A DNA stretch of 57,974 nucleotides from Patescibacteria group bacterium (GCA_043800905.1 JAZDMO010000003.1:1-57974); one strand, 5' to 3'; positions 1 to 19,809 are shown, counted from the stretch's first letter. Numbers and translations: made by a program. Notes: a model not told the origin generated them from the sequence alone.

Positions 1-1
1 T

Positions 2-610
2 GGGGCGGTGGGGCTTTGGTCTACAAGCGATATGATAAATGGTGTTGGGACTGGTAAAAAACTTTATCTTGCTTCAAATAATAATTATGCGAACCCAGAG
101 GTAACAATAAATGCAGGCAACGTCGGCATCGGGACGACGGGGCCGGGGGCTACTTTAGATATAGCTGGTAGCACTGGAGCAACTGCTTTTAGGGTTACAT
201 CAAGCGGGACGCAAAATCTACCAGCTTATATTGAAAATACTGTTAATACAGCTGGATATCATGGTTTAAAGATTAAGGTCGCAAACGCCGCAGCTGGAAC
301 ACTTCCATTTTATGTTGATGTTGGTGCAAATAGGGTGTTTCAAATTCAAGGCGACGGCAACGTCGGCATCGGGACGACGAATCCTGGAGGCAAGTTAATC
401 GTAAAAGGTGCAGGAACTACAACCGGAGTGAATTTCCAAACTCAAAACAGCAGTGGAACGGCATTAGTAACGGCTTTAGACAGCGGGAATATCGGCATCG
501 GGACGACCACACCTTCCGCAAAATTAGAGGTAGCGGGTTCATTCAAAGCCACCGCCGGAGGAAGTACAATCAACCTAGAAGATGACGGAGATGTTATGAT
601 TGGAATATAA
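2..610 (+). CDS. C-terminal part of a GNVGIGTT-repeat surface / tail-fibre-like protein (5' end lies outside the window)
   Basis: Frame is open from the window edge. Three G-N-(V/I)-G-I-G-T-T motifs (nt 117, 356, 485) use the same GC-rich nucleotide motif as the 2560-aa protein at 7679-15361. Confidence 0.7.
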   Translation, partial: GAVGLWSTSDMINGVGTGKKLYLASNNNYANPEVTINAGNVGIGTTGPGATLDIAGSTGATAFRVTSSGTQNLPAYIENTVNTAGYHGLKIKVANAAAGTLPFYVDVGANRVFQIQGDGNVGIGTTNPGGKLIVKGAGTTTGVNFQTQNSSGTALVTALDSGNIGIGTTTPSAKLEVAGSFKATAGGSTINLEDDGDVMIGI

Positions 611-2940: not shown

Positions 2941-3317
2941 TCTTTAAAAATAAAGAAAAAATGAACAAAAAAGTTGTATAATTCTGACGACCATGGGTTA
3001 AAGACAGAAACTCTGTTCATTTTTTCTGCTGGATTGCCACGAATAAATTTTTGCGAAAATTTATTCTCGCAAAGACGAAAAGCGAAACGTCTCTGCGAGG
3101 AAAGATTTTTTGATTTTTGACGAAAAATCAAAAAATCTTGACGTGGCAGTCCAGAGATTTTAAATTTTATGCTGGATTGCTTCGTAAACTCGCAATGACG
3201 TTTATTAGCTGGATTGCTACAGAATTTTTTAAAACAAAAAATTCTTCGCAATGACAACGGGATGCTGGACCTGCCTATGCCGGCAGGCAGGTTGCCACGC
3301 TATCGCTCGCAATGACG
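2941..3317. repeat. Repeat cluster A: about 100-bp inverted-repeat arm (2941-3040) plus five modular palindrome units
   Basis: Units by my reading: 3029-3077 (+), 3088-3154 (-), 3172-3200 (+, minimal, no cargo), 3209-3255 (+), 3265-3317 (+, with nested GC palindrome at 3270-3291). Confidence 0.85.
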
Positions 3318-4362: not shown

Positions 4363-4491
4363 GTTTTTCTAATTTATACTCCTCAAAAGAGGAGGGCTCC
4401 TATATGGAGATTTATACATATATAATACCAAGCATAGACAATTTGTCAAGAAATAAATTAGTCAAAAGTCTGTAAAACCATAGATAAAACG

Positions 4492-4625
4492 CTGGACCTG
4501 CCTGCCGGCAGGCAGGTTGCCACGCTATCGTTCGCAATGACGAAGAAACGGATTTTGCGAAGCAAAATCCGTTACGAAAAACTTTGTTTTTCGTCTTTGC
4601 GAGGAGCCTGCGACGTGGCAATCTA
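4492..4625. repeat. Composite C: inverted pair of modular units (134 bp) with a nested GC palindrome
   Basis: CTGGA[CCTGCCTGCCGGCAGGCAGG]TTGCCACGCTATCGTTCGCAATGACG, then two small hairpins, then CGTCTTTGCGAGGAGCCTGCGACGTGGCAATCTAG. Same architecture as the in-CDS copy at 14870-15001. Confidence 0.85.
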
Positions 4626-4655
4626 GAAATAAATTTTTATGTTAAAATATTAATA

Positions 4656-6563
4656 ATGAAAAAAAATATATCAATTTTAATAAAATCGATTTTGATTATT
4701 TTTGCAATTGGTTTATTTGCTTATGGAGTTTATGCTACGGGTTTTATTTTTTCTCCAGACAAACAAACGGCTCAAGTAAACTCTTTACAAAAAGGTTTGG
4801 TTGGTCATTGGACTTTAGACGAAGCAGATTATAATTCTTCAACAGAGAGAGTTACAGACAAAACTCCTTATGAAAATCACGGGACAAATAATGGAGCTAT
4901 TCCAACGGTAGGAAAAAATGGAGAAAGTGGTGGGGCAATGAGTTTTTATGGAAATGATTATATTCAAATTGCTGATAGTAATGTTTTGGATAATACTTCT
5001 GAATTAACAATTTCTCTTTGGATTTATTTAGCATCAGCCCCTGCTGGTTATGCTACCCATCCTATTAGAAAATGGGGCGGGACTACTGATGCAAATTATG
5101 TTATGTATATTTTTGGTTCTAATCGAACTCTTCAATTTTATGCTAATAGGGGGGGTGTTTGGGGAGGTATTTCATCTGGTTATGTTCTTCCGTTAAATGC
5201 TTGGCATCATATTACTTTAGTTTATACCTCTACTATTGGTGGACAACTTTATGTTGATGGTGTTCCGTATGGGGGTCTTGGGACTTCTGGTGTTTTAGCC
5301 ACGAATTCCAGTCCTTTTTATATTGGTGAAGCTGATTTCGACGGCAAAATCGATGATGTTCGTATTTATAATCGTGCTTTGTCATCTACAGAAATCACTC
5401 AACTTTATGAAACTTCTAATACAAAATTAACTACTAGTTCTCTACAAAGAGGTTTGGTTTTGGACATGCCTTTAACTGAAAAATATACAAAAAGTGAGAG
5501 GACTAATCATCAAATTATTGCCAACAAAACTCCCTATGACGACGGAAAAAATTTTGGAGCAACCTTTAACTCAGGTATCGGAATGTTATTTGGTGACACT
5601 TTAGAAAGTATTATTATAAATTATCGAACTTGGAAAGAAGGGCAAACAGGTTCGGTGGGTATTTTTGGTCAAAATGGAAGCACTTCTGAAAATTATAGAA
5701 TTATAGATACTGATCCTTGGGGGAGACCTGCGGTAGTGTGGGAAGCCAGAGCTGATGCGGTGAGCGGTGCTGATGGTGGTTGGAACACTTCAAACTTTGC
5801 CATAGACCAAACAAAGATGTATCGTTTTTCTACATGGATTAGGCGAACAGTTTTAGGAAACGGAACTTACTATATGGGAGTATATGGAAAAAATTCAGCA
5901 GGAACAAATATTGGAGTTTTAAATAGATCAAATGGGGCGGTAAATACAAATCCATATTTTAGAGCCACTTCAGGAACAGAAATTCTTTCTACCAGTTCTT
6001 GGTTTTTGTTAGTGGCTCATGTTTGGCCTGAAGGTTCTGGAACAGGGAGTGTTTATACTGATACAGGTTTATATAATACTTCAGGAAATAAAATTGCTAC
6101 TCCGATTGATTTTGTTTGGCAAGGAGGAACTTCTTTAGGAATACATCGAACATATTTATATTATTCAACCAACACCGATACTCGTCAGCAGTGGATTTAT
6201 CCTCGGGTAGATATTATTGATGGAACAGAACCTTCTATTCAAGATTTATTAGATGGTTATGATAGTTATGGCAATGTCGTAGAAGTTACTTTGGAGGGAG
6301 ATAAAGAATCTGTTTCTTTTTGGTATTCTGATGATACCAGTGGGGGTTGGGTGCATGTAGTGAATTCTTCTGGAACTTATTATGTTAATGGGGAATTAGG
6401 GACTCCTGCTAAGTATCCAATTGTTATTTCTGGAGATTATATTAGTATTGGAAAAACTGCCGTTTCTGATTTTTTTGATGGAGAAATTTCTAATGTAAAA
6501 ATTTATAATCGGACTTTATCAGCCGATGAAGTCGGTTTACTTTATGATTTAGGAAGACAGTAG
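4656..6563 (+). CDS. Secreted or membrane-anchored LamG (concanavalin-A-like lectin) domain protein
   Basis: ATG at 4656 gives an N-terminal hydrophobic segment; the upstream part of ORF 4584 only reads through repeat C. Two LVGHW.LDE ... FDG.I.DVRIYNRALS ... LY modules are typical of LamG domains. Confidence 0.8.
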   Translation: MKKNISILIKSILIIFAIGLFAYGVYATGFIFSPDKQTAQVNSLQKGLVGHWTLDEADYNSSTERVTDKTPYENHGTNNGAIPTVGKNGESGGAMSFYGNDYIQIADSNVLDNTSELTISLWIYLASAPAGYATHPIRKWGGTTDANYVMYIFGSNRTLQFYANRGGVWGGISSGYVLPLNAWHHITLVYTSTIGGQLYVDGVPYGGLGTSGVLATNSSPFYIGEADFDGKIDDVRIYNRALSSTEITQLYETSNTKLTTSSLQRGLVLDMPLTEKYTKSERTNHQIIANKTPYDDGKNFGATFNSGIGMLFGDTLESIIINYRTWKEGQTGSVGIFGQNGSTSENYRIIDTDPWGRPAVVWEARADAVSGADGGWNTSNFAIDQTKMYRFSTWIRRTVLGNGTYYMGVYGKNSAGTNIGVLNRSNGAVNTNPYFRATSGTEILSTSSWFLLVAHVWPEGSGTGSVYTDTGLYNTSGNKIATPIDFVWQGGTSLGIHRTYLYYSTNTDTRQQWIYPRVDIIDGTEPSIQDLLDGYDSYGNVVEVTLEGDKESVSFWYSDDTSGGWVHVVNSSGTYYVNGELGTPAKYPIVISGDYISIGKTAVSDFFDGEISNVKIYNRTLSADEVGLLYDLGRQ

Positions 6564-6669: not shown

Positions 6670-6935
6670 CTCTGGACTCCTCCCGTGGCGAAAAGTAAAA
6701 CTTTTCCGTCATTGCGAGAATAAATTTTCGCAAAAATTTATTCGTGGCAACCTGCCTGCCGGCAGGCAGGTCCAGCGTCTCGTCATTGCGAATAAGGTTT
6801 TTTGATTTTTCGTCAAAAATCAAAAAACCTTATGTGGCAATCCAGCAGAAAAAATGAAAAAAAGTTGTATAATTATGACGGTCGTCAGAATTATACAACT
6901 TTTTGGTTTGTTTTTTGTTTATTTTTGGATGCTTT
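6670..6935. repeat. Repeat cluster D: two (-) modular units, the GTTGTATAATT..AATTATACAAC palindrome, and an inverted-repeat arm matching 2941-3040
   Basis: Units 6707-6775 (with nested GC palindrome at 6751-6770) and 6781-6845. Palindrome at 6863-6900. 6834-6935 is the reverse complement of 2941-3040 except for one replaced 22-24 nt segment. Confidence 0.85.
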
Positions 6936-7678: not shown

Positions 7679-10600
7679 ATGAATTTTAATAAGCCAAACA
7701 AAAGAATAATTTTAACAAGTTTTTTGAGCTTGTTGATGCCTTTTTCTTTTGCTTCCGCTAAAAATTTTATTATTCATGATAGCAGTGATGCAAATAATAC
7801 TTATTTTTCTATAATCGGAACTACTGGTTATATTGGTTTAGGAGTAAGTAGTCCATCTACTCTTTTGCAATTAAAAAATAATAATTGGATTTCCGCGTTG
7901 GATGTTGCTGGGACGGGAGTGGTTAATATGTTTAAGGTTAATACTTCAAATCAAATTGAAGTAGGGGCTCCTCTTAATATTGGAAGTTTTGAATTTACTC
8001 CCGATTCTGGTTTGGTTACTTTTGCTGACATGGCTGTGACTTCCGCTTCTCCAATTGGAACTCCTGAAAGTTATGTTTTTAAATTGGATGGAGAAAATAT
8101 AATGTCTATTTATTCCGAATCTAATGGAGCAGGAGGAATTCAAAATAAAAGAGTAGGAATTGGAACCACAGCTCCCACACAAGCTCTCGAGGTTGCTGGA
8201 ACAATTTATTCATCTACAGGAGGATTTAAATTACCCGATGGAACCATTGTTGATTCTCAGTCTGATTTAACTCCAGTTACTCCCCATACCCAAATTTTGG
8301 TGGGAGATGCTTCTGATGTTGCAGTTGCCACTTCAACTTTGACCATTTTGGATTCTGGGAATGTTGGTATCGGGACGACGGCACCTACAAATAAATTACA
8401 TGTAAAAATTGATGCGGAAAGCACATTAGCTGTTTTGTTAGAAAATAATGGTACTGGTACGACTGCAAGAGATGTTCTTAAACTGGTTTCTTCTGGAACT
8501 GGTAATGGAACAAAAGTTTTTGAAGTTCAATCAAGCGGTGGAACAACTGAGGGTTTGGTTGTTATGGGTAGTGGCAACGTCGGCATCGGGACGACGGCAC
8601 CATCAGGAATTTTGCACACCTATGCATTAACAGGTAATAATAGTTTATATATTGATTCTTTTACAGATAATTCTTTTTTGCATTTGAGGTCAAATTTAGA
8701 TGGGTTAGGTGGAGAAGAAAGTGGAATTATATTTTCAGACGGAACAAGCGGTAAGTGGGAATTATACAAAAATTCAAACAATAATTTTTCTATTTATGAT
8801 TATACAAGAGCGGGAATATCTTTTGATATCGCTGATAACGGAGATATGTCTTTGATGCAATCTGGTGGCAACGTCGGGATTGGTACGACGAATCCAAGTC
8901 AGAAATTACACGTTAGTGGCGGAAGTGCTTTGTTTGCTTCTACAGAAGGAATTTTATTAAGTCCAGGTACGACAGCAGGAATTATTGGACATGATGGAAG
9001 TGCTTATAACGATTTGGAATTAAGGGCACAAGCTGGTACTCAGTTATATTTAAAATCCGACGGCAACGTCGGCATCGGGACGACGGGACCAGAGACAAAG
9101 TTTCAAGTTACAGGAACAGCAGGAACACAGGGTTCGGCTGGTCACGTTAGAAGAATAGTAAGTTTATATGATGATACAGCACAAGCTACTGGGGTCGGGT
9201 CGGGTATTGTTTTTGGCGGAAAATATACAGATGCAGGATTGTATACACAATTTGGAGGTATTTATGCACGAAAAGATAATGGGACAACTGGGAATTATGG
9301 AGCTTCATTAAACTTTTTTGCAAGAGAACACGGAGATGCTGTTTTGAATCCTGATATGGTAATTTCAAGTAGCGGCAACGTCGGCATTGGGACGACGGGG
9401 CCGACAACTGAGTTGATGGTACAAGGAGCAAACGGGATTACCCATAAAAGAAACACTGATAATGCTGGCGGGACATTGAAGCTGGGAGCAGGGACTGGAT
9501 TGGTTACATTGATGAGTTCTAACTTGGTTAATGGCGATTTGTCAATAAAAGATGATACAGGGGCAGTAATGGTTCATATCAAAGCAGACGGCAACGTCGG
9601 CATCGGGACGACGGGTCCTGGGTCTCCTTTAGAGGTTGCTACTGTGCCATCAACGGGAGAAAAATCATCAATTCAATTTGGGTCAGGGGGACATTTACTT
9701 TCAACATCAGTACCAATGGCAGGATTTTCTGGTGGGGCATATTTTAATTACAATGGTTCCTCGTATCAATGGATACCAGAAGATACTGGTGCCTCAACAT
9801 TTCAAATGTATAACGTGGCTAAAGGGGACTTTGCTATCACCACGAACAATGGGCTTACCGCAGGAGTTGCGTATACTCCGACTCCAAGATTGGTTATTAC
9901 ACCGACTGGAAATGTGGGATTGGGTGGAAGTATAACTAACTACTCTACTCTTGCAGGGTCAAGTCTAACAATAAATAACGGCAACGTCGGCATCGGAACG
10001 ACGAGTCCTGTAGGCAATCTTCATATAACTGATAGTGTTGGTGGTGGAAATTACCACTTAATTCTTGAAGACCCTGATGCAAGTGCAGATGAGAAGCAGT
10101 GGGTAATGAGAACAATTACAGGTCAATTAGATTTCAGAACTCGGACAGACAGTGGAACACAAAGCACGAAGTTGACAGTGTTAAACAACGGCAACGTCGG
10201 CATCGGGACGACGAGTCCTACAGATAAACTAGATGTAGCAGGAAATATAAGATTAACACATACCAGTCCTGACTTAGATTTTATGGCAAATGGAGGACAT
10301 TATAATTGGCGGATTGCGGCACAAGAAAATGTCAATAATGCTTTAGAAATCACACCATCAACTGCTGTTGATGGAAGCACTTTTTCAACTCCAGCTGTCA
10401 CAATTTTAAGCACCGGCAACGTCGGCATCGGAACAACTGCACCAAATTCTCAACTTCAGCTTACGCATGACACAACTACTATAACAACCGAAGCTGACTA
10501 CGCATTTAGTATTAAACCTGATTTGACAGCGGAGTTATTTATGGGAGTAAATACCACAGGCGGTTATAGTTTTATTCAATCATTCGACCCTGGTACAAAT

Positions 10601-13600
10601 TGGAATGGGAAACCTCTTATCTTAATGCCAAATGGTGGCAACATCGGCATCGGAACAACTGCACCTGGGGCGAAGTTACATATTTCTGGAGGTTCTGGAA
10701 TTATTGAAAATGCAGGGGTAGTGTCCTTAACACTTAAAGATTCCAGTAGTACTTCAATCCCAACCTTATATTTTGTCCAAGGAGCAACAACTCAAGCTTC
10801 AATTCAAGGCGGTACAGCAGTACAAGGACGACTCGATTTCAATACATATAACAATCCTAATACCATGACTTTGTTTAACGGCAACGTCGGCATCGGGACG
10901 ACGAATCCGGGTGCGAAGTTGGAAGTTAATGGTAAAGTTAAACTTACTACAGGAAATTCACTTCTATCTACTTATGTTGGAGACCTTGCTGAAACAGGAG
11001 GATATATGGAAACAAGTACTACAAATTTAAAATTTGTGACAAGAAATGGGCATATAGTTTTTGATACAACTGCAGGCAACGTCGGCATTGGGACGACGAA
11101 TCCTGGGGCGAAGTTGGAGGTAGCTGGGAATATTGAGCTTTCAGGAGCAAGTAGATACATAACTGTTGATGGAGGGAATCTATATTTAGATCCTAGTGAT
11201 GGTGTTGTAAATCTTTATGATAATGTTGATGATTTCGCATTGAATGTTTATAGTGGCTCTACCTTAAAGGCCAAAGTCAATTCAAATGGTAATAGTTATT
11301 TCAATGGAGGCAACGTCGGCATCGGAACAACAGCACCAGATGCGTTGTTAGATATATATAATGGAGCTTTGGTTAATAGAGCTTCTGCAGTTAATCATTA
11401 TAGAAACGTTCTTTCACAGTATCTTGGTGTCGGTAATCAAGTTGGAACTTTAAAAATAGTACTTCCAAAACAGTCAGATACTATGATAGACATAACAATA
11501 AAAGGTTATGATTATAGTGCTAATATCGGAGCTTGGGAAGTTAGAATAAGCGGTTATGTTTATTCTGGTACAGGTGGTTGGTATACACTTAATCATAAAG
11601 CACAAATTATCGGTAGCGCCCCATTTTCTAAAGTTCGTTTATCTTATGATGGCTCAAAGCCAATAATTCTTTTGGGCGATACTTCTACTGTTTGGTCTTA
11701 TAGTTCTATTGAAGTATCTGATGTCACTACTTCTTATGCAGGGATTACTGGTTGGGGGTCAGGGTGGACAGCTTCTTTAATTACCGATGAAACTGGTCTT
11801 ACTCTTAAAGCAACACCTTTGATTTCTACTTATACTACGGCGAGTGGCAACGTCGGCATCGGGACGACGGCACCGAATAGTAAGCTTACTGTTGGTTATG
11901 TTGGTTCTAATACAGCAAATGGATTAATTGGAAGTTTTTTCAACGGAGACGAAACAACTGTAAAAATATTAGGAACTGCTAATACAAATGATACTGGGGC
12001 TCATTTGCAGTTAATGGAAAATAATCCTGCTTTATATGGTTTTGATACTTGGTATGATACTGGCAACAATAAATTATTTATTGATTCATATACGAATGAT
12101 GTAAAAACAAATGTGATGGCGATGACAACAACTGGCAACGTCGGCATCGGGACGACAGCGCCGGGGGCGAAGCTGGATGTAAATGGAACTTCTTATTTAC
12201 GTGGTAAAACAACGATTAATTCCGCTGGTGAAATTGCTTCTGGTTATGCTCCTTTGCACATTAATCAAGCTGTTGCTAACTCGGTTGTCCTTGATGAAGA
12301 AACAACTACAGCGGGATTAAATATTCGTGGTTATTCTGATAATGTTAATTTACAATTAGGTGTTGGTGGTGTTTCTTTGGGATATAATTCATGGATACAA
12401 GCCTCTTATGATAATGGTGGTTCTTCAACTGGTACTGAGGCTTTATTATTAAATCCAGTTGGTGGCAACGTCGGGATTGGGACGACAGGACCTCAAGGAA
12501 TGTTACAAGTTGGTGCTCGCGCTCAAGCAACCCCCGCAACGTATCCAGGACGGATAATAGTAGGGGGAACCGCAGGATCTACACTTGAATCGGAGGGTGG
12601 TGTTGAGTTTCCAGTTGCCGACGATGGGTACTCATATAAGATTCAAGGACTTGCTTCAAGTGGATCAGTTTTGGCTTTCGGGAATAGGACCGCTTCTGCT
12701 ACATGGGTTGAACGAATGCGCATAAATCCCGTTGGTAACGTAGGTATTGGAACCACTGTACCAGACGAATCACTTGATGTTAATGGGGCTATACAAGCAA
12801 AGAGTGGTGCTCCCTCTGCCTTTAATGCTAATCATGTGGGTTATACTTTTTCTAGTGAGACGGATGGAGGAATGTTTAGCCCTGCTGATGGAAATATTGT
12901 ATTTGCATCAAATGGAACGGAGAGAATGAGAATAGATAATGCAGGTAATATCGGCATCGGGACGACGGCACCATCTACAAAATTCCAAGTAAAAGACGGT
13001 GGAGCAACCTTCAGTTTCAAAGAAGTCCCAATGATTTTTAACGCCGAAGCTTATGTTACTTCAGCAAATAGTATGTATAGCTCTTTGTATTTAGGTGATG
13101 CTTCTCATCCTCAATATGCAGGTTTAACTTATGATTCTAGCGGAAACGCTTTAAGTATTCTTTCCAATAATGCTGCTCGTATAACAATAAATAGTGCTGG
13201 AAATGTCGGCATCGGTACCACTGCACCATCTGCAAAACTCCAAGTCCAAGTAAGTAATAATGGATTAAATATAGTTAATGGATTAAGAAATGAAAATGCA
13301 ACAGAATCAGGTGGTAATGCTGTTGGAGTTGGATTTTTAAATGAGCCGAATGGAGATTGGTGGAAAGCGGCTATTGTTCACGAAAGAACTGGAGGGTATG
13401 GAATTGGTGATTTAAGATTTTTGGTAGATAGCGCCATAGATAGCAACAGTGTAGGCCTAACAGATACAAAAATGATTATTAAGAGCACTGGCAACGTCGG
13501 CATCGGAGTAGTCGATCCCGGATCTTTATTATCTCTTGCTAATAACAATTGGATTTCTGAAAAGAATGCCGCTGGTTCAGGTTATGTGAATATGTTTAAA

Positions 13601-15361
13601 GTAAATACTGATAATGAAATTGATGTAGGTACAACTTTGAACGCTGGAACTTTTGAATTTGCAGAAGACAGTGGAACAGTGACCGCTATGGATATGCCGG
13701 TTTCTTCATCGGCTAGCGCTGGAACAGACGAAGCCTATACTTTTAAAGTTGATGGAACAAATATTTTGACAGTTTTTGCTGAATCTAATGGAGCCGGAGG
13801 AATTCAAAATCCACGGGTGGGAATTGGTGATTCAACCCCTTCTTATCAGTTGGAACTTTCTACTAACTCCGCTGCCAAACCAACTTCTTCCTCTTGGACC
13901 GTTTCTTCCGATGAAAGATTAAAGGACGTTAATGAAGATTTCCCAAGAGGTTTGGAAGCTATTATGGGGTTGTATCCTATGTATATGAATTACAAGGTAG
14001 ATAATCCTTTGGGGCTTCCTTCGGATCAAGAGTTTATTGGTTTAGTTGCTCAAGATGTCGAAAAAGTAATTCCAGAAGCTGTGAAAACTGATGTAAATGG
14101 ATATTTAACGATTGATGCTGATCCAATCAAATGGACTATGATTAATGCGATTAAAGAATTAGGTTCAAAGATTAGTGGTTCTTTGGAAGAAAATTTTGGT
14201 ATTGGAACTGTTATTCCTTATCGTAAATTACAGGTTGAAGAAGCGGGAGAAAATCCTCAAATGAGAATTGCTTATGATGAAAGTAATTATGCAGAAATGC
14301 AAGTGAGTGCGGTGGGAGATTTAGCCTTAACTGCTCGAGGAGGAGATGTGAGATTGCCCGATGATAACTTAATGGTTTGTTCAGGTGGAGCTTGCCCTAC
14401 CAAAGCTTCTGCTTTGAATGGAACAGGAAATTTGGTAGTAGAAAATATTGCTTACGTTGCGGGAGCTTTGGGGATTGGAACAGAAAGTCCTGAAAGACCT
14501 TTGGATATTTATGAAACTCAATCTAACCCTCAGATGAGAATTTCTTATGATGATGATTTATATTCAGAATTTAAAGTTTCGGCGACTGGCGATTTGAGTA
14601 TTTCAGCTCAAGGAGGTGATGTGTCTGTTTTAGATGAAAATTTTAGAGTGTGTTCAGGTGAAGCTTGTCCATCAGAACTTTATAGTGCTAGTGGAAGAGG
14701 AAATTTGTTGGTAGAAAATAATATTTTAGCTTTGGGAAATGTTGGTATTAATACAGCCACTCCTGATTATACTTTGGATGTTAAAGGAACTTTACGAGCT
14801 TATGGAATTACCGATGCTTCTGATATTCGTTTGAAGAAAAATATTCGTTCACTTGTAGATACTTATAGTCTGGATTGCCACGCTATCGCTCGCAAAGACG
14901 AAGAACAAAGTTCTTCGTTAACGAATTTTGCTTTGCAAAATTCGTCTCTGCGAGCTGATAAGTCTACCTTAGGTATGGGAGCCTGCGACGTGGCAGTCCA
15001 GAAAAATACTGTTTTAGAAAATGTTATGAAATTAAGGGGAGTAAAATTTGAATGGAAAGATTCTGAGTTGGGAGTAGGGGATCAGATTGGTTTTATTGCT
15101 CAAGAAGTTGAAAAGGTTTATCCAGAATTAGTTTCCACAGATCAAGACGGATACAAGTCTGTTCAATACGGTAAAATGACCGCCGTGCTTGTGGGGGCAA
15201 TTCAAGAACTAACTAAATTATTTGAAGGGACTAAGATTGAATATTCAAGATTAGATAATCGAACTACTGAATTAGAAAAAGAAAATCAAGAATTGAAAAC
15301 AAAAACGGTTGAATTAGAAAACCGAATCAAAGCTCTTGAAAATATCTTCCGCCAAAAATAA
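7679..15361 (+). CDS. Giant (2560 aa) secreted GNVGIGTT-repeat tail-fibre-like protein with two peptidase-S74-type intramolecular-chaperone domains and a C-terminal coiled coil
   Basis: Signal-like N-terminus. More than 25 GN(V/I)GIGTT..P..KL.V repeats. S-D-x-R-L-K ... (I/V)G(F/L)(I/V)AQ(E/D)VEKV(Y/I)PE modules near nt 13904 and 14817. Heptad-like ELEKENQELKTKTVELENRIKALE at the end. Confidence 0.9.
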   Translation: MNFNKPNKRIILTSFLSLLMPFSFASAKNFIIHDSSDANNTYFSIIGTTGYIGLGVSSPSTLLQLKNNNWISALDVAGTGVVNMFKVNTSNQIEVGAPLNIGSFEFTPDSGLVTFADMAVTSASPIGTPESYVFKLDGENIMSIYSESNGAGGIQNKRVGIGTTAPTQALEVAGTIYSSTGGFKLPDGTIVDSQSDLTPVTPHTQILVGDASDVAVATSTLTILDSGNVGIGTTAPTNKLHVKIDAESTLAVLLENNGTGTTARDVLKLVSSGTGNGTKVFEVQSSGGTTEGLVVMGSGNVGIGTTAPSGILHTYALTGNNSLYIDSFTDNSFLHLRSNLDGLGGEESGIIFSDGTSGKWELYKNSNNNFSIYDYTRAGISFDIADNGDMSLMQSGGNVGIGTTNPSQKLHVSGGSALFASTEGILLSPGTTAGIIGHDGSAYNDLELRAQAGTQLYLKSDGNVGIGTTGPETKFQVTGTAGTQGSAGHVRRIVSLYDDTAQATGVGSGIVFGGKYTDAGLYTQFGGIYARKDNGTTGNYGASLNFFAREHGDAVLNPDMVISSSGNVGIGTTGPTTELMVQGANGITHKRNTDNAGGTLKLGAGTGLVTLMSSNLVNGDLSIKDDTGAVMVHIKADGNVGIGTTGPGSPLEVATVPSTGEKSSIQFGSGGHLLSTSVPMAGFSGGAYFNYNGSSYQWIPEDTGASTFQMYNVAKGDFAITTNNGLTAGVAYTPTPRLVITPTGNVGLGGSITNYSTLAGSSLTINNGNVGIGTTSPVGNLHITDSVGGGNYHLILEDPDASADEKQWVMRTITGQLDFRTRTDSGTQSTKLTVLNNGNVGIGTTSPTDKLDVAGNIRLTHTSPDLDFMANGGHYNWRIAAQENVNNALEITPSTAVDGSTFSTPAVTILSTGNVGIGTTAPNSQLQLTHDTTTITTEADYAFSIKPDLTAELFMGVNTTGGYSFIQSFDPGTNWNGKPLILMPNGGNIGIGTTAPGAKLHISGGSGIIENAGVVSLTLKDSSSTSIPTLYFVQGATTQASIQGGTAVQGRLDFNTYNNPNTMTLFNGNVGIGTTNPGAKLEVNGKVKLTTGNSLLSTYVGDLAETGGYMETSTTNLKFVTRNGHIVFDTTAGNVGIGTTNPGAKLEVAGNIELSGASRYITVDGGNLYLDPSDGVVNLYDNVDDFALNVYSGSTLKAKVNSNGNSYFNGGNVGIGTTAPDALLDIYNGALVNRASAVNHYRNVLSQYLGVGNQVGTLKIVLPKQSDTMIDITIKGYDYSANIGAWEVRISGYVYSGTGGWYTLNHKAQIIGSAPFSKVRLSYDGSKPIILLGDTSTVWSYSSIEVSDVTTSYAGITGWGSGWTASLITDETGLTLKATPLISTYTTASGNVGIGTTAPNSKLTVGYVGSNTANGLIGSFFNGDETTVKILGTANTNDTGAHLQLMENNPALYGFDTWYDTGNNKLFIDSYTNDVKTNVMAMTTTGNVGIGTTAPGAKLDVNGTSYLRGKTTINSAGEIASGYAPLHINQAVANSVVLDEETTTAGLNIRGYSDNVNLQLGVGGVSLGYNSWIQASYDNGGSSTGTEALLLNPVGGNVGIGTTGPQGMLQVGARAQATPATYPGRIIVGGTAGSTLESEGGVEFPVADDGYSYKIQGLASSGSVLAFGNRTASATWVERMRINPVGNVGIGTTVPDESLDVNGAIQAKSGAPSAFNANHVGYTFSSETDGGMFSPADGNIVFASNGTERMRIDNAGNIGIGTTAPSTKFQVKDGGATFSFKEVPMIFNAEAYVTSANSMYSSLYLGDASHPQYAGLTYDSSGNALSILSNNAARITINSAGNVGIGTTAPSAKLQVQVSNNGLNIVNGLRNENATESGGNAVGVGFLNEPNGDWWKAAIVHERTGGYGIGDLRFLVDSAIDSNSVGLTDTKMIIKSTGNVGIGVVDPGSLLSLANNNWISEKNAAGSGYVNMFKVNTDNEIDVGTTLNAGTFEFAEDSGTVTAMDMPVSSSASAGTDEAYTFKVDGTNILTVFAESNGAGGIQNPRVGIGDSTPSYQLELSTNSAAKPTSSSWTVSSDERLKDVNEDFPRGLEAIMGLYPMYMNYKVDNPLGLPSDQEFIGLVAQDVEKVIPEAVKTDVNGYLTIDADPIKWTMINAIKELGSKISGSLEENFGIGTVIPYRKLQVEEAGENPQMRIAYDESNYAEMQVSAVGDLALTARGGDVRLPDDNLMVCSGGACPTKASALNGTGNLVVENIAYVAGALGIGTESPERPLDIYETQSNPQMRISYDDDLYSEFKVSATGDLSISAQGGDVSVLDENFRVCSGEACPSELYSASGRGNLLVENNILALGNVGINTATPDYTLDVKGTLRAYGITDASDIRLKKNIRSLVDTYSLDCHAIARKDEEQSSSLTNFALQNSSLRADKSTLGMGACDVAVQKNTVLENVMKLRGVKFEWKDSELGVGDQIGFIAQEVEKVYPELVSTDQDGYKSVQYGKMTAVLVGAIQELTKLFEGTKIEYSRLDNRTTELEKENQELKTKTVELENRIKALENIFRQK
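8357..13513 (+). repeat. Dispersed coding 24-mer GGCAACGTCGGCATCGGGACGACG (GNVGIGTT) and near-identical variants
   Basis: Exact copies read at 8573, 9062, 9590, 10190, 10880 and 11846 (plus 117 and 356 in the upstream gene). At least 10 further copies show 1-4 differences (e.g. 9374, 9980, 10415, 11075, 11309, 12134, 12474, 12944, 13490). Confidence 0.85.
14870..15001. repeat. Composite E: inverted pair of modular units (132 bp, exactly 44 codons) in frame inside the giant CDS
   Basis: CTGGATTGCCACGCTATCGCTCGCAAAGACG, then hairpins ACGAAGAAC/GTTCTTCGT and ACGAATTTTGC/GCAAAATTCGT, then CGTCTCTGCGAG...GAGCCTGCGACGTGGCAGTCCAG. Starts on a codon boundary ((14870-7679) is divisible by 3). Confidence 0.85.
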
Positions 15362-15365
15362 AACC

Positions 15366-16193
15366 TTTTGGGGGTTTCGCCCCCAAAAATAGCAAAAATT
15401 AAAATGGCAAATAGAGAACCGTTATTAATAAATGAATATTATCACGCTTATAACCGTGGAGCCGATAAGCGAATTATTTTTGATGATGTTTTTGATATTT
15501 TAAGATTTCTGCAAAGTATGCAGGAATTTAACTCTGTAGAACCGATAGGTAGTATTTATGAAAAAAATTATCATAATAAAGAAGAGAATGTAAATTTTGG
15601 GGGTTTCGCCCCCAAAGCTTTTAAATCAGATAGGTTAGTTAAGATAGTCGCCTATTGTTTAAATCCGAATCATTTTCATTTGATATTAAGTCCGTTGGTA
15701 GAAAACGGGATTAGTGAATTTATGAAAAGACTAGGTGGTGGTTATACTACTTATTACAATATTAAAAATAATAGAAAAGGAGTATTATTTCAAGGAGTTT
15801 TCAAATCAAAACATATTGATTCTGACTCTTATCTTAGATTTTTGAGTGCTTATGTAAATTTAAATTTTAAAGTTCATAAAAAGTTTGAAAAAAATAATGG
15901 AAAAAACCAATCGGTTTTTAAATCAAGTTGGGATGAATATCTTAATGCAAAAATTATAAAGAAAAAAGGAACTAATGAACACAAAATTATAAACAACAAA
16001 GATGATATTTGCGATAAGTCAATGATTTTATCTCACTTTAATTCGATAGAAGAATATAAAAGATTTGCAATAGAATCATTAAGAGAAATTAAAAGGAAAA
16101 GATATAATGAAGATGATATAATTAAAGATGATTTTTCTTTGTAAGAAATCATCAAATTAATTTAATGATACTTGGGGATAGTATCCCCAAGTA
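15366..16193 (+). mobile_element. RAYT/IS200-like Y1 transposase unit 1 with flanking hairpins
   Basis: Left hairpin TTTTGGGGGTTTCGCCCCCAAAA at 15366-15389. The same hairpin occurs in frame inside the CDS at 15595-15616. A different right hairpin TACTTGGGGATAGTATCCCCAAGTA lies at 16169-16193. Confidence 0.5.
15404..16144 (+). CDS. Y1 HUH transposase-like protein (IS200/RAYT family)
   Basis: YHAYNRG N-terminal motif, HUH motif NPNHFHLIL, candidate catalytic Tyr in SAYVNLN. ATG at 15404; the TTG-started extension of ORF 15368 only reads through the left hairpin. Confidence 0.8.
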   Translation: MANREPLLINEYYHAYNRGADKRIIFDDVFDILRFLQSMQEFNSVEPIGSIYEKNYHNKEENVNFGGFAPKAFKSDRLVKIVAYCLNPNHFHLILSPLVENGISEFMKRLGGGYTTYYNIKNNRKGVLFQGVFKSKHIDSDSYLRFLSAYVNLNFKVHKKFEKNNGKNQSVFKSSWDEYLNAKIIKKKGTNEHKIINNKDDICDKSMILSHFNSIEEYKRFAIESLREIKRKRYNEDDIIKDDFSL

Positions 16194-16215
16194 TTTCTGG
16201 ATAAGGGTTTGGAAT

Positions 16216-19200
16216 ATGAAAATTTTTAAAATTTTAAATAAAAATAAAAAAAAATGGTGGGCTGTTTTCTTAGTATTTTTTTTAATTGCAAATTGTGCCC
16301 AAGCAAGTTTTACTAATTTATCAGGAAATTCTTTAAATAAAGGTTTGGTGGGTTCTTGGCCTTTAGATCGACAATCTACGGGAACAAATAATTATTTTGG
16401 TTATGCCGATTTTAACAGTTCTACGGATGAAATTACTTTACCAGCTATGAGTCTTGTTAATGGAAGTTATAATTTTAGTTTGTCTTATTGGTTAAAAGCT
16501 GAAAATATTCCGACTGTTGATGATTGGACTTATGCTGATTCACCAATTAGTTTTGGCGGTGATGGTACTGGTTTTATGACTTTTGCTGATGGAGGGTCAA
16601 ATCCAAACCGATTGTCTTTTCGGGCGAATTTTGCTTCGGTTGGTTGGACTTCTCCAGTAGAATCAGGTCAGTTGAGTAATAATGTTTGGTATCATATTGT
16701 TGTTACGTTTAATACCAGTAGTGGTTGGAAAATGTATCAAGATGGTGTTTTAGTTGATTCAAATACTATGTTGAATACTTTTTCTGGAGCTACTGTTAAT
16801 AATAAAATTGGGAAGTCGGATGGTGGAACAGACAGAAGTTTCGATGGAAAAATCACAGATGTTAGATTGTATAATACAACTTTATCAGCCGCTGATGTTT
16901 TGACTCTTTCTTATGTAAGTAATATTGCAGCTTCTGTGGTTCAAAGCAATTTATTTGCTTGGTGGAAACTTAATTATGATAGTGATGATTATTCTGGAAA
17001 TAGTAGAAATGGTACTAATACAGGAGTAACAATAACAATTCCTATGACAGATGGTTATTCCTATGACAAGACTCCTTATTCAAATGATATAACTATCAGT
17101 AGTGGTGGTGCAACCGATCGTTTTGGAAAAAGTTATGGATCTACGGATTTTAATGGAACCAGTAATTATTTAGAAGTTCCTAGTAGTTCCTCTATAGATA
17201 TTAGAAGAACCATTTCTTTTTCCTTTTGGTTTTATGTGGATACTCTCCCGAGTGCGTGGTCAGCTCTCTTTTCAAAAATGGATAGTAGCGGAAGTGTTGG
17301 GTCAAGAACCTACGCTGTGTTTTTGAATACAAATGGTTATTTGCATTTAACTTCGGCTGATGCTACCGGACAAGAAACTGCTGATACTGTTGCTGGTTCA
17401 ATTCAAACAGGTCGATGGTATCACTATATGGCGGTCATTGATAGAAATAGTGGAACTCTGAAATCATATTTAAACGGTGTTCAAGCAGCTTCAGGAACGG
17501 TAAGAACTACAGATACTGTTTCAAACAGTGAGCCTTTAAATATTGGATCACACAGGGGTAGTACTTATAATTATTTTGACGGAAGAATGGAAGATGTTCT
17601 TCTTTATGACAGAGCTTTAACAGCGAACGATGTTCTTTCACTTTATGATTCTTATAATCAAAAAGTTTCTGCTGGAAATTTGAATAAAGGTTTAGCTGGC
17701 CATTGGCCTTTAGATAGTGAAAGTAACAAGGGGAGTTATGGTTATGATATTTCGACTGCGGTTTATAATTCCAATTTTAGCATAGCATCTCAAGATACCA
17801 GTCCTCGTGAGATTAATTTTAATACAGACGGTACAAGAATGTTTATGTTGGGATTCACAGGAGTAGATGTTAACGAATACCACTGTACAACCGGTTTTGA
17901 TGTTAGCACTTGTACTTATGATTCTGTTTTTAGCGTGTCTACACAGGAAATTTATCCTCAAGGTCTCGCCTTTAATCCAGATGGTACCAAGATGTTTGTT
18001 ATTGGTTATTCTGGCGATGATGTTAACGAATACCATTGTACAGTAGGTTTTGATGTTAGTACTTGTTCTTATAATTCTGTTTATAGTGTATCTAGTTATG
18101 AGACTAATCCTTCTGGAATTGATTTTAATACAGATGGTACTAAGATGTTTATTGTTGGTTATGATGGGGATGCTGTCGATGAGTATCATTGTTCCACAGG
18201 ATTTTTAGTTAGTACCTGTGCTTATGATTCTACTTATAGTGTGGCTAGTCAAGAAATCGCTCCATATTCAGTTGTTTTTAATATAGATGGAACAAAAATG
18301 TTCATTGGTGGAAATAATAGCGGTTATGTTCGCGAGTATCATTTGAGTACAGGGTTTGATGTTTCTACCGCTAGTTATGATTCATCGTTAAATGTTTCTA
18401 GTTATGACACGACACCCTTAGGTATAGCTTTTAATACTAATGGTACTAAGATGTTTGTTTCTGGTTTTGCTGGACAAGATATAAATGAATTTGATCTTGA
18501 TACTTCTAGCGTGATTATGGCTGATAAAACTCCCAACTCAAACGATGGAATTACTTTTGATGGTCCAACCTTAATCATTGATCGTTTTGGAAAAACAGAT
18601 GGAGCGATGAGTTTTAGCGGGGGGGTTACTTCGGGTGATTATATCTCTCTTGGTTCTAGCCATGTAATTGATTTAACTAGTGCTACTGTATCTTTTTGGG
18701 CGAAAAGAGATGTTTTAGTTACTACTCAAGATGGTACTAATACGGCTGGAGCTCTTAGAATTCTTTATGGGGGAACTAGTTATAAATTTTTGGATCAATG
18801 GGTGAATGATACTTATTTTCAATTTCAAGGAGAAAGGGATGTCAACAGCGAGTATTGGGCAAATATTACTTCTAGTGTCGTAGCAGACACTAATTGGCAT
18901 CATTTTGTTATTACGGCAAATAATAATGTTTTTACTTTGTATATAGATGGTGTTTATCAGGGTGTTGATAATGATTCATCTGCTGGATATACTTCGAATA
19001 CTTGTACAATTTCAGATATTGCTAAAGGGTATACTGTTGCAAATAGTTCTTATGGTTCTTATTTTGATGGAAGTCTGTCCGATATGCGTTTTTATAACAG
19101 ACCGCTTTCTGCAGCTGAAGTTAGCACCTTATATTCTTCCTACAAACCAAAAATTTCCGCTGGAAATTTAAATAAAGGTTTGGTGGGTTTTTGGCCTTTG

Positions 19201-19809
19201 AATAGTCAAAGCCAAAAATCGAGTACAGTTTATGCTGATAAGACCCCTAATTCAAACGATGGTACCGCAACTAATGGTCCAGCTCTTACTACTGGTCCAA
19301 CTGGTAAGGTGAATGATGCTTTGAGTTTTAATGGTTCAAATCAATGTATAAATATTCCTAATTCAACAGCTCTTGATAACCAAACGATTACAATTTCGGC
19401 TTGGGTAAATCCGACAGCTGATGGAAATTATTTTATTTTTGAAAAAGGAAGTGTAAACACGCAATATTCTTTCTTTTTTGAAGGCGCGTATCTTAGATTT
19501 AGAACTATGGGGGCTGCTTCTTATGATTTAGCTATTGCTAAGACGACTGCAGGAATTACAAATGGTGAATGGCATCATGTAGCAGCGACTTTCGATGGAA
19601 CCACAAAAACAATTTATGTTGATGGAGCTTATGCTACATCTATGACTTGGGCAAATACAATATCTACAAATACTTGGGGAAGTATTATTGGTTGTTATGG
19701 AGGAACCACTCCGAGTTATTTTTTAAATGGAAAAATATCAGGAGTTCGTGTCTATAATCGAGCTCTTTCAGCTGAAGAAATAAATTTGCTTTATCAAACA
19801 AAACAATAA
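16216..19809 (+). CDS. Large secreted multi-LamG-domain protein with a central array of 51-aa repeats (putative beta-propeller)
   Basis: ATG at 16216 gives MKIFKILNKNKKKWWAVFLVFFLIANCAQA (signal-like). Several LNKGL.G.WPLD ... FDG...D.R.YNR.LSA.E...LY LamG modules. Confidence 0.85.
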   Translation: MKIFKILNKNKKKWWAVFLVFFLIANCAQASFTNLSGNSLNKGLVGSWPLDRQSTGTNNYFGYADFNSSTDEITLPAMSLVNGSYNFSLSYWLKAENIPTVDDWTYADSPISFGGDGTGFMTFADGGSNPNRLSFRANFASVGWTSPVESGQLSNNVWYHIVVTFNTSSGWKMYQDGVLVDSNTMLNTFSGATVNNKIGKSDGGTDRSFDGKITDVRLYNTTLSAADVLTLSYVSNIAASVVQSNLFAWWKLNYDSDDYSGNSRNGTNTGVTITIPMTDGYSYDKTPYSNDITISSGGATDRFGKSYGSTDFNGTSNYLEVPSSSSIDIRRTISFSFWFYVDTLPSAWSALFSKMDSSGSVGSRTYAVFLNTNGYLHLTSADATGQETADTVAGSIQTGRWYHYMAVIDRNSGTLKSYLNGVQAASGTVRTTDTVSNSEPLNIGSHRGSTYNYFDGRMEDVLLYDRALTANDVLSLYDSYNQKVSAGNLNKGLAGHWPLDSESNKGSYGYDISTAVYNSNFSIASQDTSPREINFNTDGTRMFMLGFTGVDVNEYHCTTGFDVSTCTYDSVFSVSTQEIYPQGLAFNPDGTKMFVIGYSGDDVNEYHCTVGFDVSTCSYNSVYSVSSYETNPSGIDFNTDGTKMFIVGYDGDAVDEYHCSTGFLVSTCAYDSTYSVASQEIAPYSVVFNIDGTKMFIGGNNSGYVREYHLSTGFDVSTASYDSSLNVSSYDTTPLGIAFNTNGTKMFVSGFAGQDINEFDLDTSSVIMADKTPNSNDGITFDGPTLIIDRFGKTDGAMSFSGGVTSGDYISLGSSHVIDLTSATVSFWAKRDVLVTTQDGTNTAGALRILYGGTSYKFLDQWVNDTYFQFQGERDVNSEYWANITSSVVADTNWHHFVITANNNVFTLYIDGVYQGVDNDSSAGYTSNTCTISDIAKGYTVANSSYGSYFDGSLSDMRFYNRPLSAAEVSTLYSSYKPKISAGNLNKGLVGFWPLNSQSQKSSTVYADKTPNSNDGTATNGPALTTGPTGKVNDALSFNGSNQCINIPNSTALDNQTITISAWVNPTADGNYFIFEKGSVNTQYSFFFEGAYLRFRTMGAASYDLAIAKTTAGITNGEWHHVAATFDGTTKTIYVDGAYATSMTWANTISTNTWGSIIGCYGGTTPSYFLNGKISGVRVYNRALSAEEINLLYQTKQ
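17818..18510 (+). repeat. Tandem 153-bp (51-aa) coding repeats FN.DGTKMF..G..G..V.EYH...GFDVST..YDS..SVS
   Basis: Unit starts read at 17818, 17971, 18124, 18277 and 18430, a constant 153-nt period. Confidence 0.8.

Follow-up and report, generated by a model that had tools for sequence, protein, structure and literature searches.

A predicted fibre gene with repeated junction motifs

We examined a 24-nucleotide (nt) sequence, GGCAACGTCGGCATCGGGACGACG, that recurs in a gene for a predicted surface fibre on a 57,974-nt stretch of DNA from a Patescibacteria group bacterium (GCA_043800905.1 JAZDMO010000003.1:1-57974), referred to below in its full length as the window. The genome comprises 646,679 bases (647 kb) on 22 contigs and has a genome-wide GC content at third codon positions (GC3) of 0.215. 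The contig begins within a fibre-like gene that carries the same motif copies, or anchors, as the complete fibre gene further along (window 1-610). The assembly break at this point probably falls within a repeat-rich fibre gene, and the genome may therefore contain more anchors than were counted. The two open reading frames (ORFs) and the S74-type motifs of the complete one are as follows.

2..610, + strand, second fibre-like ORF, 3' part (5' truncated by the contig start), 3 junction motifs
7679..15361, + strand, fibre ORF, 2560 amino acids (aa): hydrophobic N-terminal leader, 20 junction motifs, C-terminal part with two S74-type motifs
13907..13924, + strand, first SDxxxK motif, SDERLK, aa 2077, of the S74 type (from sequence)
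14819..14836, + strand, second SDxxxK motif, SDIRLK, aa 2381 (from sequence)

The fibre ORF is predicted to encode an S74-type surface fibre like those of phage tails and like the mosaic adhesive trimer (MAT) fibres of Bdellovibrio, with display at the cell surface. The Pfam family Peptidase_S74 (PF13884) matched it in two stretches (E = 1.5e-21; best stretch aa 2443-2485), and similarity was found to the solved Bdellovibrio stalks Bd2133 (8OND; E = 7.8e-12, three stretches) and Bd3182 (8OJN; E = 8.7e-4). The N-terminus is hydrophobic in translation and the first 157 aa match relatives; no NCBIfam family matches the fibre protein. According to PMC10769870, MAT fibres are intertwined trimeric beta-helices related to the L-shaped fibre of phage T5 and to the K1F endosialidase, with GN(V/L)G(I/L)GT at the start of a beta-helix. 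The protein studied here resembles MAT and S74 fibres in this sequence, in its matches to both stalks and to Peptidase_S74 and in its two SDxxxK motifs. Unlike the Bdellovibrio fibres, it has 2560 aa, 20 junctions and two S74-type motifs, and is encoded in a 647-kb genome. We regard it as a putative new and very long member of the MAT and S74 fibres. The junction motif aligns to the residues at which, in PMC10769870, beta-helix regions start (G683- and N814-), and would therefore form the first strand of each module. It is predicted, in other words, to open each beta-helix module of the fibre.

An N-terminal domain of the fibre (7862-8170, LLQLKNNNWIS...RVGIGTT) recurs after the last anchor at 13526-13834 as LLSLANNNWIS...RVGIGDS, with 70% identity over 137 nt. 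This second copy is followed by the first S74 motif, then by further stalk and then by the second S74 motif. As judged from this order, the ORF looks like either two fused fibre genes or one fibre with two cleavage sites.

The motif is conserved at the nucleotide level and each gene carries its own dialect

An initial annotation had reported at least eight exact copies of the 24-mer and at least ten more with one to four differences, spread across two genes. We located eight exact copies, all on the + strand (116, 356, 8573, 9062, 9590, 10190, 10880 and 11846), and none of 100 shuffles gave any match; two of the positions given earlier were off by one (117 for 116 and 12733 for 12734). With up to three mismatches there are 17 copies in the window, and with up to four there are 20 in the whole genome (8 exact and 12 with 1-4 mismatches). 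All 20 are on the + strand of one contig, in the two ORFs at 2..610 and 7679..15361, which also answers whether the 24-mer occurs in this genome outside such genes. Each of them is in frame and encodes GN(V/I)GIGTT. A six-frame peptide search of the genome returned 26 motif sites, 23 in the two window ORFs and three in one gene on another contig, C6, where all three sites use A/T-ending codons. The anchors of the large ORF are spaced by 195-537 nt, every spacing is a multiple of 3 and all are direct repeats. The 23 anchors of the window, and the interior of one shared module, are listed below.

116..139, + strand, anchor, exact canonical 24-mer (exact match)
356..379, + strand, anchor, exact canonical 24-mer (exact match)
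485..508, + strand, anchor GNIGIGTT, 4 mismatches (mismatch search)
8357..8380, + strand, first anchor of the large ORF, 4 mismatches; 5' half in A/T form, 3' half canonical
8573..8596, + strand, anchor, exact
8867..8890, + strand, anchor, 3 mismatches
9062..9085, + strand, anchor, exact
9374..9397, + strand, anchor, 1 mismatch (ATC>ATT)
9590..9613, + strand, anchor, exact
9980..10003, + strand, anchor, 1 mismatch (GGG>GGA)
10190..10213, + strand, anchor, exact
10415..10438, + strand, anchor, 3 mismatches, all within the last three codons
10637..10660, + strand, anchor GNIGIGTT, 4 mismatches
10880..10903, + strand, anchor, exact
11075..11098, + strand, anchor, 1 mismatch
11309..11332, + strand, anchor, 3 mismatches, all within the last three codons
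11846..11869, + strand, anchor, exact
12134..12157, + strand, anchor, 1 mismatch
12464..12487, + strand, anchor, 3 mismatches
12734..12757, + strand, anchor in host-typical codons, 7 mismatches (peptide search)
12944..12967, + strand, anchor GNIGIGTT, 3 mismatches; left border of the module shared with the C6 paralogue
12968..13198, + strand, module interior shared with the C6 paralogue, 85% nt identity (sequence comparison)
13199..13222, + strand, anchor, 5 mismatches; right border of the module shared with C6 (peptide search)
13490..13513, + strand, last anchor GNVGIGVV, first 17 nt canonical; similarity to same-genus orthologues starts here (aa 1936-1946)

The conservation of the motif extends to its synonymous sites and has sharp limits. 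At the 19 strict GNVGIGTT sites, the canonical codons of positions 1-8 are used at frequencies of 0.84, 0.89, 0.89, 0.79, 0.74, 0.68, 0.79 and 0.68, and the same codons elsewhere in these ORFs at 0.07, 0.18, 0.08, 0.07, 0.14, 0.17, 0.09 and 0.09. They are among the rarest of a genome whose usage is not generally GC-ending (GGC 6%, GTC 7%, ATC 10% and ACG 6% genome-wide), and the non-motif GC3 of the fibre gene is 0.18-0.29 along the whole ORF. The earlier description of G/C-ending codons inside the motif and A/T-ending ones around it thus holds, as does that of a few copies in A/T-ending codons, at 8357 (5' half only) and 12734. The most deviant anchors are the first and the last three or four of the array, and departures from the canonical word are mostly C>T and G>A. 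The inverted repeat CGTCG...CGACG that had been noted in the 24-mer is present.

As a control for the flanks, codon identity was calculated between repeat pairs with the same amino acid at a given position and compared with the background expectation. Within the motif it was 0.43-0.81. Outside, it was at background: 0.29 against 0.34 expected for the invariant proline at +9, 0.27 against 0.32 for leucine at +13 and 0.42 against 0.38 for valine at +15. Among the modules of the fibre gene, shared repeats exceed the motif by a few bases at most. The synonymous-identity comparison that had been proposed bears out the divergence claimed for the sequence outside the 24-mer.

The word is also found far beyond this genome. 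The collection scans below comprise the first roughly 120 stretches each instead of a random sample; some loci nearly duplicate one another, sites of the same locus cannot be treated as independent, and the organism labels of assembled genomes are as deposited. The exact 24-mer occurs in at least 120 stretches of a genome collection and in at least 120 of a viral one. The genome matches listed carry labels from many bacterial phyla and several archaeal groups, and the viral matches listed include contigs labelled as giant-virus bins. An even sample of the window's own phylum contained the exact word in 18 of 401 genomes and 17 of 320 genera, this genome having the most copies; the reversed pattern was absent from the 401 genomes. 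In the flanks of the exact copies at 225 loci, the conserved proline appears in all four codons (CCG 88, CCA 64, CCT 44, CCC 24), and the sharp edges of the motif therefore hold across taxa.

To avoid ascertainment by the word itself, we also scanned with a fully degenerate coding pattern for GNVGIGTT, which admits 24,576 encodings. Among the viral matches listed (243 sites in 123 ORFs, 4 of them exact), at least five canonical codons were found at 43 sites, compared with 4.0 expected from the codon usage of the ORFs (maximum 12 in 1000 simulations). Among the metagenome matches listed (196 sites, 118 loci) the corresponding count was 78 sites against 8.1 expected (maximum 19 in simulations). 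The exact word accounted for 27 metagenome sites in 12 loci, whose GC content ranged from 0.34 to 0.66, and the runner-up variant for 7 sites in one locus only. Thirty-five metagenome sites had G or C at every third position, which allows 64 variants, and 27 of them were the canonical word. Each position has a fixed choice of C or G (Gly1 C 124 : G 5; Val C 104 : G 18; Gly6 G 81 : C 37; Thr7 G 80 : C 17). ORFs of all GC3 classes favour the canonical word, including those in which GGC and ACC are otherwise the normal codons. CpG creation was considered as a unifying rule and rejected; it covers five of the eight wobble bases and not GGC at position 1, the most enriched.

Other spellings recur as well. 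A second, G-rich one, GGGAATGTGGGGGTGGGGACGACG (GNVGVGTT), is found unchanged in genomes from different families. A third spelling is all-C, GGCAAC[AG]TCGGCATCGGCACCACC, and lies 41-43 aa upstream of a GGG-rich one in a two-motif type of module (loci of the two spellings: L376, L377, L379, L380, L381 and L378, from relatives G019, G010, G014 and G011). At low-GC3 sites of the unascertained samples (L241-L356, L475-L592), Gly4 is GGT in 143 of 232, Gly6 is mostly GGA (94) and Gly1 is GGG in 1 of 232. These position-specific preferences of A/T-form anchors partly mirror the canonical word by transitions.

The dialect of the motif is specific to the gene. In 76 ORFs with multiple sites, the variance of the canonical-codon count was 0.78 within ORFs versus 6.68 in total. 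The canonical word is used by relatives G006, G007, G014, G019 and G025 and is common in relatives with a GC3 of 0.40-0.46. A/T-rich dialects of their own are found in G036 (23 motifs) and in G001 (20 motifs), which belongs to the same genus, and the form in G004 includes GGA and ACC. Since the C6 paralogue and the same-genus G001 spell the motif A/T-rich, the GC form is a requirement neither of the protein nor of the genome.

Probable module exchange at the junctions and proposed explanations for the spelling

Homology between fibre genes frequently ends at the motif. Repeats of at least 120 nt and at least 85% identity were counted among all fetched loci, and an end was scored as at the motif when it lay within 8 nt. 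By this measure 159 of 286 ends of within-locus repeats (expected fraction 0.10) and 57 of 126 ends of between-locus repeats (expected 0.07) were at the motif. Many such repeats are the same module at non-adjacent places of one gene. The viral contigs L449 and L468 show 100% identity as far as the last base of an anchor, are unrelated immediately after it and become identical again at a later anchor. For L178 and L210, adjacent modules of one contig map to distant, non-adjacent places of the other.

One such case involves the fibre gene itself, which has a module between the anchors at 12944 and 13199 in common with the C6 paralogue. The interior is 85% identical at the nucleotide level, and identity is 32% over the 60 nt that adjoin each anchor on the outside. 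At codons for the same amino acid, the two genes differ in 11 of 14 cases in the two anchors versus 15 of 62 in the interior; the anchors were therefore reset separately from the module they bracket. The copies in the window are nearer the canonical word than those of C6. In AT-rich ORFs, GC3 forms a shoulder beside canonical anchors, being 0.53 at codon -1, 0.31-0.39 at +8 to +11 and 0.25 far away (105 sites, 50 loci), and no such shoulder was seen beside A/T-form anchors.

Genomes of the same genus or family contain syntenic fibre orthologues with Y1, Ig-like or GAPDH neighbours. Two complete ones have 2705 and 3371 aa, as compared with 2560 aa here. Similarity to the orthologues is 50-60% over the last ~620 aa and starts at aa 1936-1946, the last anchor being at aa 1938. 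Upstream of this anchor there are only scattered matches of 30-50% to same-genus and same-family orthologues. The comparison of orthologues and paralogues suggested earlier thus agrees with module turnover in the different lengths, in the one C6 module bounded by anchors and in the lack of close modules in common upstream of the last anchor. Taken together, the junction motifs as seams of module exchange are well supported, for the family at large and for one case in this genome.

The core of the initial annotation was a process working on the DNA, not just on the encoded protein. Codon use, the flank control, the excess in every GC3 class, the C/G choice and the C6 anchors all support this. 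The interpretation offered there stands in part, its main idea being largely right. Of the three mechanisms offered, a recombination anchor is the best, given the block ends at the motif, the C6-shared module and the length differences between orthologues. Conversion restricted to the motif has the dialects, the reset C6 anchors and the GC3 shoulder on its side, although GC bias alone cannot fix C as against G. A hairpin signal fares poorly, as detailed below.

We propose that crossovers are anchored at the motifs and that, gene by gene, the synonymous sites of these anchors undergo concerted evolution towards a widely shared GC-rich version, and we see an even chance that this is correct. The 24-mer would be the nucleotide version of the junction motif with which every beta-helix module starts. 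With an invariant peptide, the junctions would be all that otherwise unrelated modules have in common, and they could serve as short-homology crossover points at which modules are replaced, duplicated and lost. As a junction would be the heteroduplex or crossover zone, its synonymous sites would not be independent. The anchors of a gene may then be reset together by short-tract conversion, a form of concerted evolution through a process favouring G/C, and a gene-specific dialect would therefore arise. The dialect of this gene would be the GC-rich version that many genomes and viruses share, and the sharing would permit module exchange between them. On this proposal, breakpoints would be placed by homology of the anchors rather than by selection against broken modules, conversion would maintain the GC form, and the shared dialect would matter for exchange.

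Several observations weigh against this proposal. ORFs with a single copy are canonical (at least six codons; 19%) about as often as those with multiple copies, and intragenic homogenisation is therefore not required; as a sole cause it is insufficient. Neither biased nor unbiased conversion accounts for the position-specific fixation of C or G, or for the single variant that makes up 27 of 35 all-GC3 sites. A blastn search of the fibre gene at 80% identity or more found no recent module duplicate within it, the C6 module being the only match. Hybrid anchors that are half one form and half the other, assessed as runs of canonical codons, showed slightly fewer switches than expected, which was not significant (0.03-0.28 of simulations at or below the observed value). 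In collinear homologues, with reciprocal hits counted twice and loci ascertained for the exact word included, synonymous differences have a similar frequency in anchors (69 of 338, 0.204) and in interiors (1841 of 7134, 0.258). The breakpoints at the motif could result from random breaks filtered by selection for intact modules. Finally, 24 nt lies close to the shortest homology that RecA-type recombination can use. The values from collinear homologues also give no sign of general purifying selection on the wobble bases of the anchors.

A bolder version of the proposal, which we consider doubtful, treats the 24-mer as a cross-domain 'adapter standard' for fibre modules in phages, giant-virus-like contigs, ultra-small bacteria and archaea, predatory bacteria and others. 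Modules would be copyable between genes of the same spelling, frequency-dependent selection at the level of modules would keep that spelling, and its GC-rich, partly palindromic form would make 24 nt of homology sufficient. If true, it would be a natural counterpart of the standardised junctions used in cloning.

Tail fibres and related adhesins are known mosaics and decide which cells a phage, a predator or an episymbiont attaches to. Here the seam of the mosaic is visible at single-base resolution, and one nucleotide spelling of it is preferred in genomes that range from AT-rich to GC-rich. Should this spelling promote exchange, it would account for the fast diversification of fibres, provide a searchable DNA marker for exchangeable fibre modules in metagenomes and point to natural seams at which the fibres of laboratory phages could be engineered. 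Should biased conversion maintain it instead, the motif would be an unusually clean, small-scale prokaryotic example of that process.

Selection could instead act on the sequence of the transcript or of single-stranded DNA, as a hairpin (CGUCG-N9-CGACG), as a cluster of slow codons that pauses the ribosome at the start of a module for co-translational folding or trimerisation, or as the binding site of a factor. We think this unlikely. It would accommodate the preference for the canonical word in every GC3 class, the fixed C/G choice and the sharp edges. For the hairpin in particular, the third bases of Val3 and Thr7 are complementary at a frequency of 0.61 compared with 0.50 expected (289 sites, 183 loci), but covariation is absent at the other pair that could be assessed, and a control that does not pair gives 0.58. 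Of six exact copies folded in context, only two have the stem in their minimum-energy fold (z-scores for the six -0.02 to -2.95). At -6.0 kcal/mol the hairpin ranks about 640-830 of the 24,576 encodings, and its stability is equalled or exceeded by 20 of the 64 all-GC3 variants. The stem is missing from other recurrent dialects, genes of this family in the A/T form manage without it, and no Rfam family matches in the window. As for a pause, all eight codons are rare in this genome, yet the same codons are common and preferred in GC-rich ORFs and hosts, and rare-codon pausing was rejected as a universal cause on that ground. We also observed that where aspartate precedes the motif (9047-9100 and 9575-9628), GAC GGC AAC GTC gives a GACG-GCAA-CGUC stem-loop, which competes with the CGTCG/CGACG stem in the predicted fold.

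We give a similarly small chance to the possibility that the spelling is a by-product only, in that GC-biased gene conversion among the repeats drives their wobble bases to G or C and the motif plays no role in exchange. Such conversion has been proposed for bacteria (PMC4450053). It would be consistent with a GC enrichment confined to the sole homologous tract with a short shoulder, with the gene-level dialects and with the resetting of anchor codons in the C6-shared module. It does not predict one C/G choice shared across taxa, canonical single-copy ORFs or block boundaries at the motif, and many multi-copy genes remain in the A/T form (23 motifs in G036, 20 in G001).

That the repeat region was recently acquired by horizontal transfer from a donor richer in GC, its motif not yet worn down to host composition, appears improbable. 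In line with it, the exact word is patchy in the phylum (18/401 genomes, 17/320 genera) and common in relatives with a GC3 of 0.40-0.46, the repeat region has no close counterpart in same-genus genomes, and deviations are mostly C>T and G>A. However, the non-motif codons are at host GC3 along the whole ORF (0.18-0.29 compared with 0.215 for the genome), and the adjoining proline and leucine codons are already randomised, when the synonymous sites of the motif should decay equally fast.

It is very improbable that the 24-mers are target sites of a dedicated enzyme, such as the neighbouring Y1 (IS200/RAYT-like) transposase acting on DNA hairpins or a shufflon-type recombinase. A Y1_Tnp ORF does lie directly downstream, as it does beside the orthologues in G002 and G004, and the 24-mer contains an inverted repeat. 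Every copy is nevertheless in frame and in direct orientation, and hundreds of loci in other taxa and in viruses contain the word. Separate REP-like palindromes in this genome fit such an enzyme better, and the score of the Y1 ORF against the REP-associated tyrosine transposase (RAYT) family, 21.4, is far below the cutoff of 80. Shufflon-type inversion requires sites in inverted orientation and a dedicated recombinase; here 23 of 23 sites are direct and in frame, and the neighbour is Y1-transposase-like, not a tyrosine or serine invertase.

Least credible of all is ordinary translational selection for accurate or optimal codons at invariant residues. Although the 33 tRNAs found include a perfect match to five of the six codon types (GCC, GUU, GAU, CCC, CGU), two large conserved-looking ORFs, taken for rpoB and rpoC by size and position alone, use ACG at 0% and GGC at 1-4%, the paralogue and other genes spell the motif with A/T-ending codons, and the invariant proline and leucine have no such preference. 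A DNA uptake sequence is over-represented throughout a genome, and this function was ruled out by the confinement of all 20 matches (up to 4 mismatches) to two ORFs of one contig.

Relation to known systems and neighbourhood of the fibre gene

The glycine-rich motifs (GRMs) of the gp38 adhesins of T-even phages, conserved between hypervariable segments, offer a parallel. As with these GRMs, the conserved motifs of the fibre alternate with highly variable segments, and breakpoints lie at the motifs (159/286 and 57/126 block ends, L449/L468 and the one C6-shared module here). The gp38 exchanges take place among closely related phages of one host group, and no single spelling shared across phyla or domains is known for them. 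Unlike gp38 segments, the modules here are whole beta-helix domains of 65-179 aa.

In the vls system of Borrelia, 17-bp direct repeats conserved at the nucleotide level bracket variable segments that are exchanged by segmental conversion. Antigenic variation of the vls type has silent donor cassettes and one expression site, whereas the repeats here are inside one expressed ORF; donor arrays were not sought beyond C6.

The pattern is also like GC-biased conversion (PMC4450053), in that GC3 is raised in a recombining tract of an AT-rich genome, and like concerted evolution in general, in that repeats are more alike within a gene than between orthologues or paralogues (0.78 versus 6.68; reset anchors). 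It differs from GC-biased conversion in a tract of only 24-33 nt and in an outcome that is one specific sequence, for which C and G are not equivalent. The available text of PMC10769870, leaving aside its supplementary Fig. 18 motif alignment and Table 1, does not contain the word 'nucleotide' and does not discuss codons. The peptides 'GNVGIGT' and 'NVGIGT' were not found in a full-text literature search, and the titles and abstracts listed for recombination breakpoints and motifs in tail fibres had nothing on the GNVGIGTT motif. What goes beyond these precedents is one spelling of 24,576 with sharp 24-nt limits and gene-level dialects, present in AT- to GC-rich genomes of different domains and in viral contigs.

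The fibre gene is at a chromosomal surface-protein locus and not in a prophage. Large proteins with Laminin_G_3 (concanavalin-like lectin) domains are encoded on both sides of it (4584-6563, two stretches; 16165-19809, four stretches), and an Ig-like surface protein lies beyond the second of these at 20821-23055; together they form a surface-protein cluster. The further neighbours are the Y1 transposase-like ORF, followed by glycolysis and pentose-phosphate genes. The Y1_Tnp (IS200-like) ORF is at 15368-16144, directly downstream of the fibre gene, and matches the NCBIfam RAYT family weakly (21.4 bits, cutoff 80). Its homologues adjoin the orthologous fibre genes in G002 and G004. An exact 22-mer, TTTTGGGGGTTTCGCCCCCAAA, is found at 15366 and at 15595.

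GC-rich REP-like elements, each a palindrome ACCTGCCTGCCGGCAGGCAGGT with a tail of 25-40 nt, lie at 3264-3317, 4491-4542, 6750-6771 and 14861-15013. The last of these is in frame within the second S74 region of the fibre and is read as ...LDCHAIARKDEEQ...GACDVAVQ. A 25-mer of the element occurs eight times in the genome at up to four mismatches.

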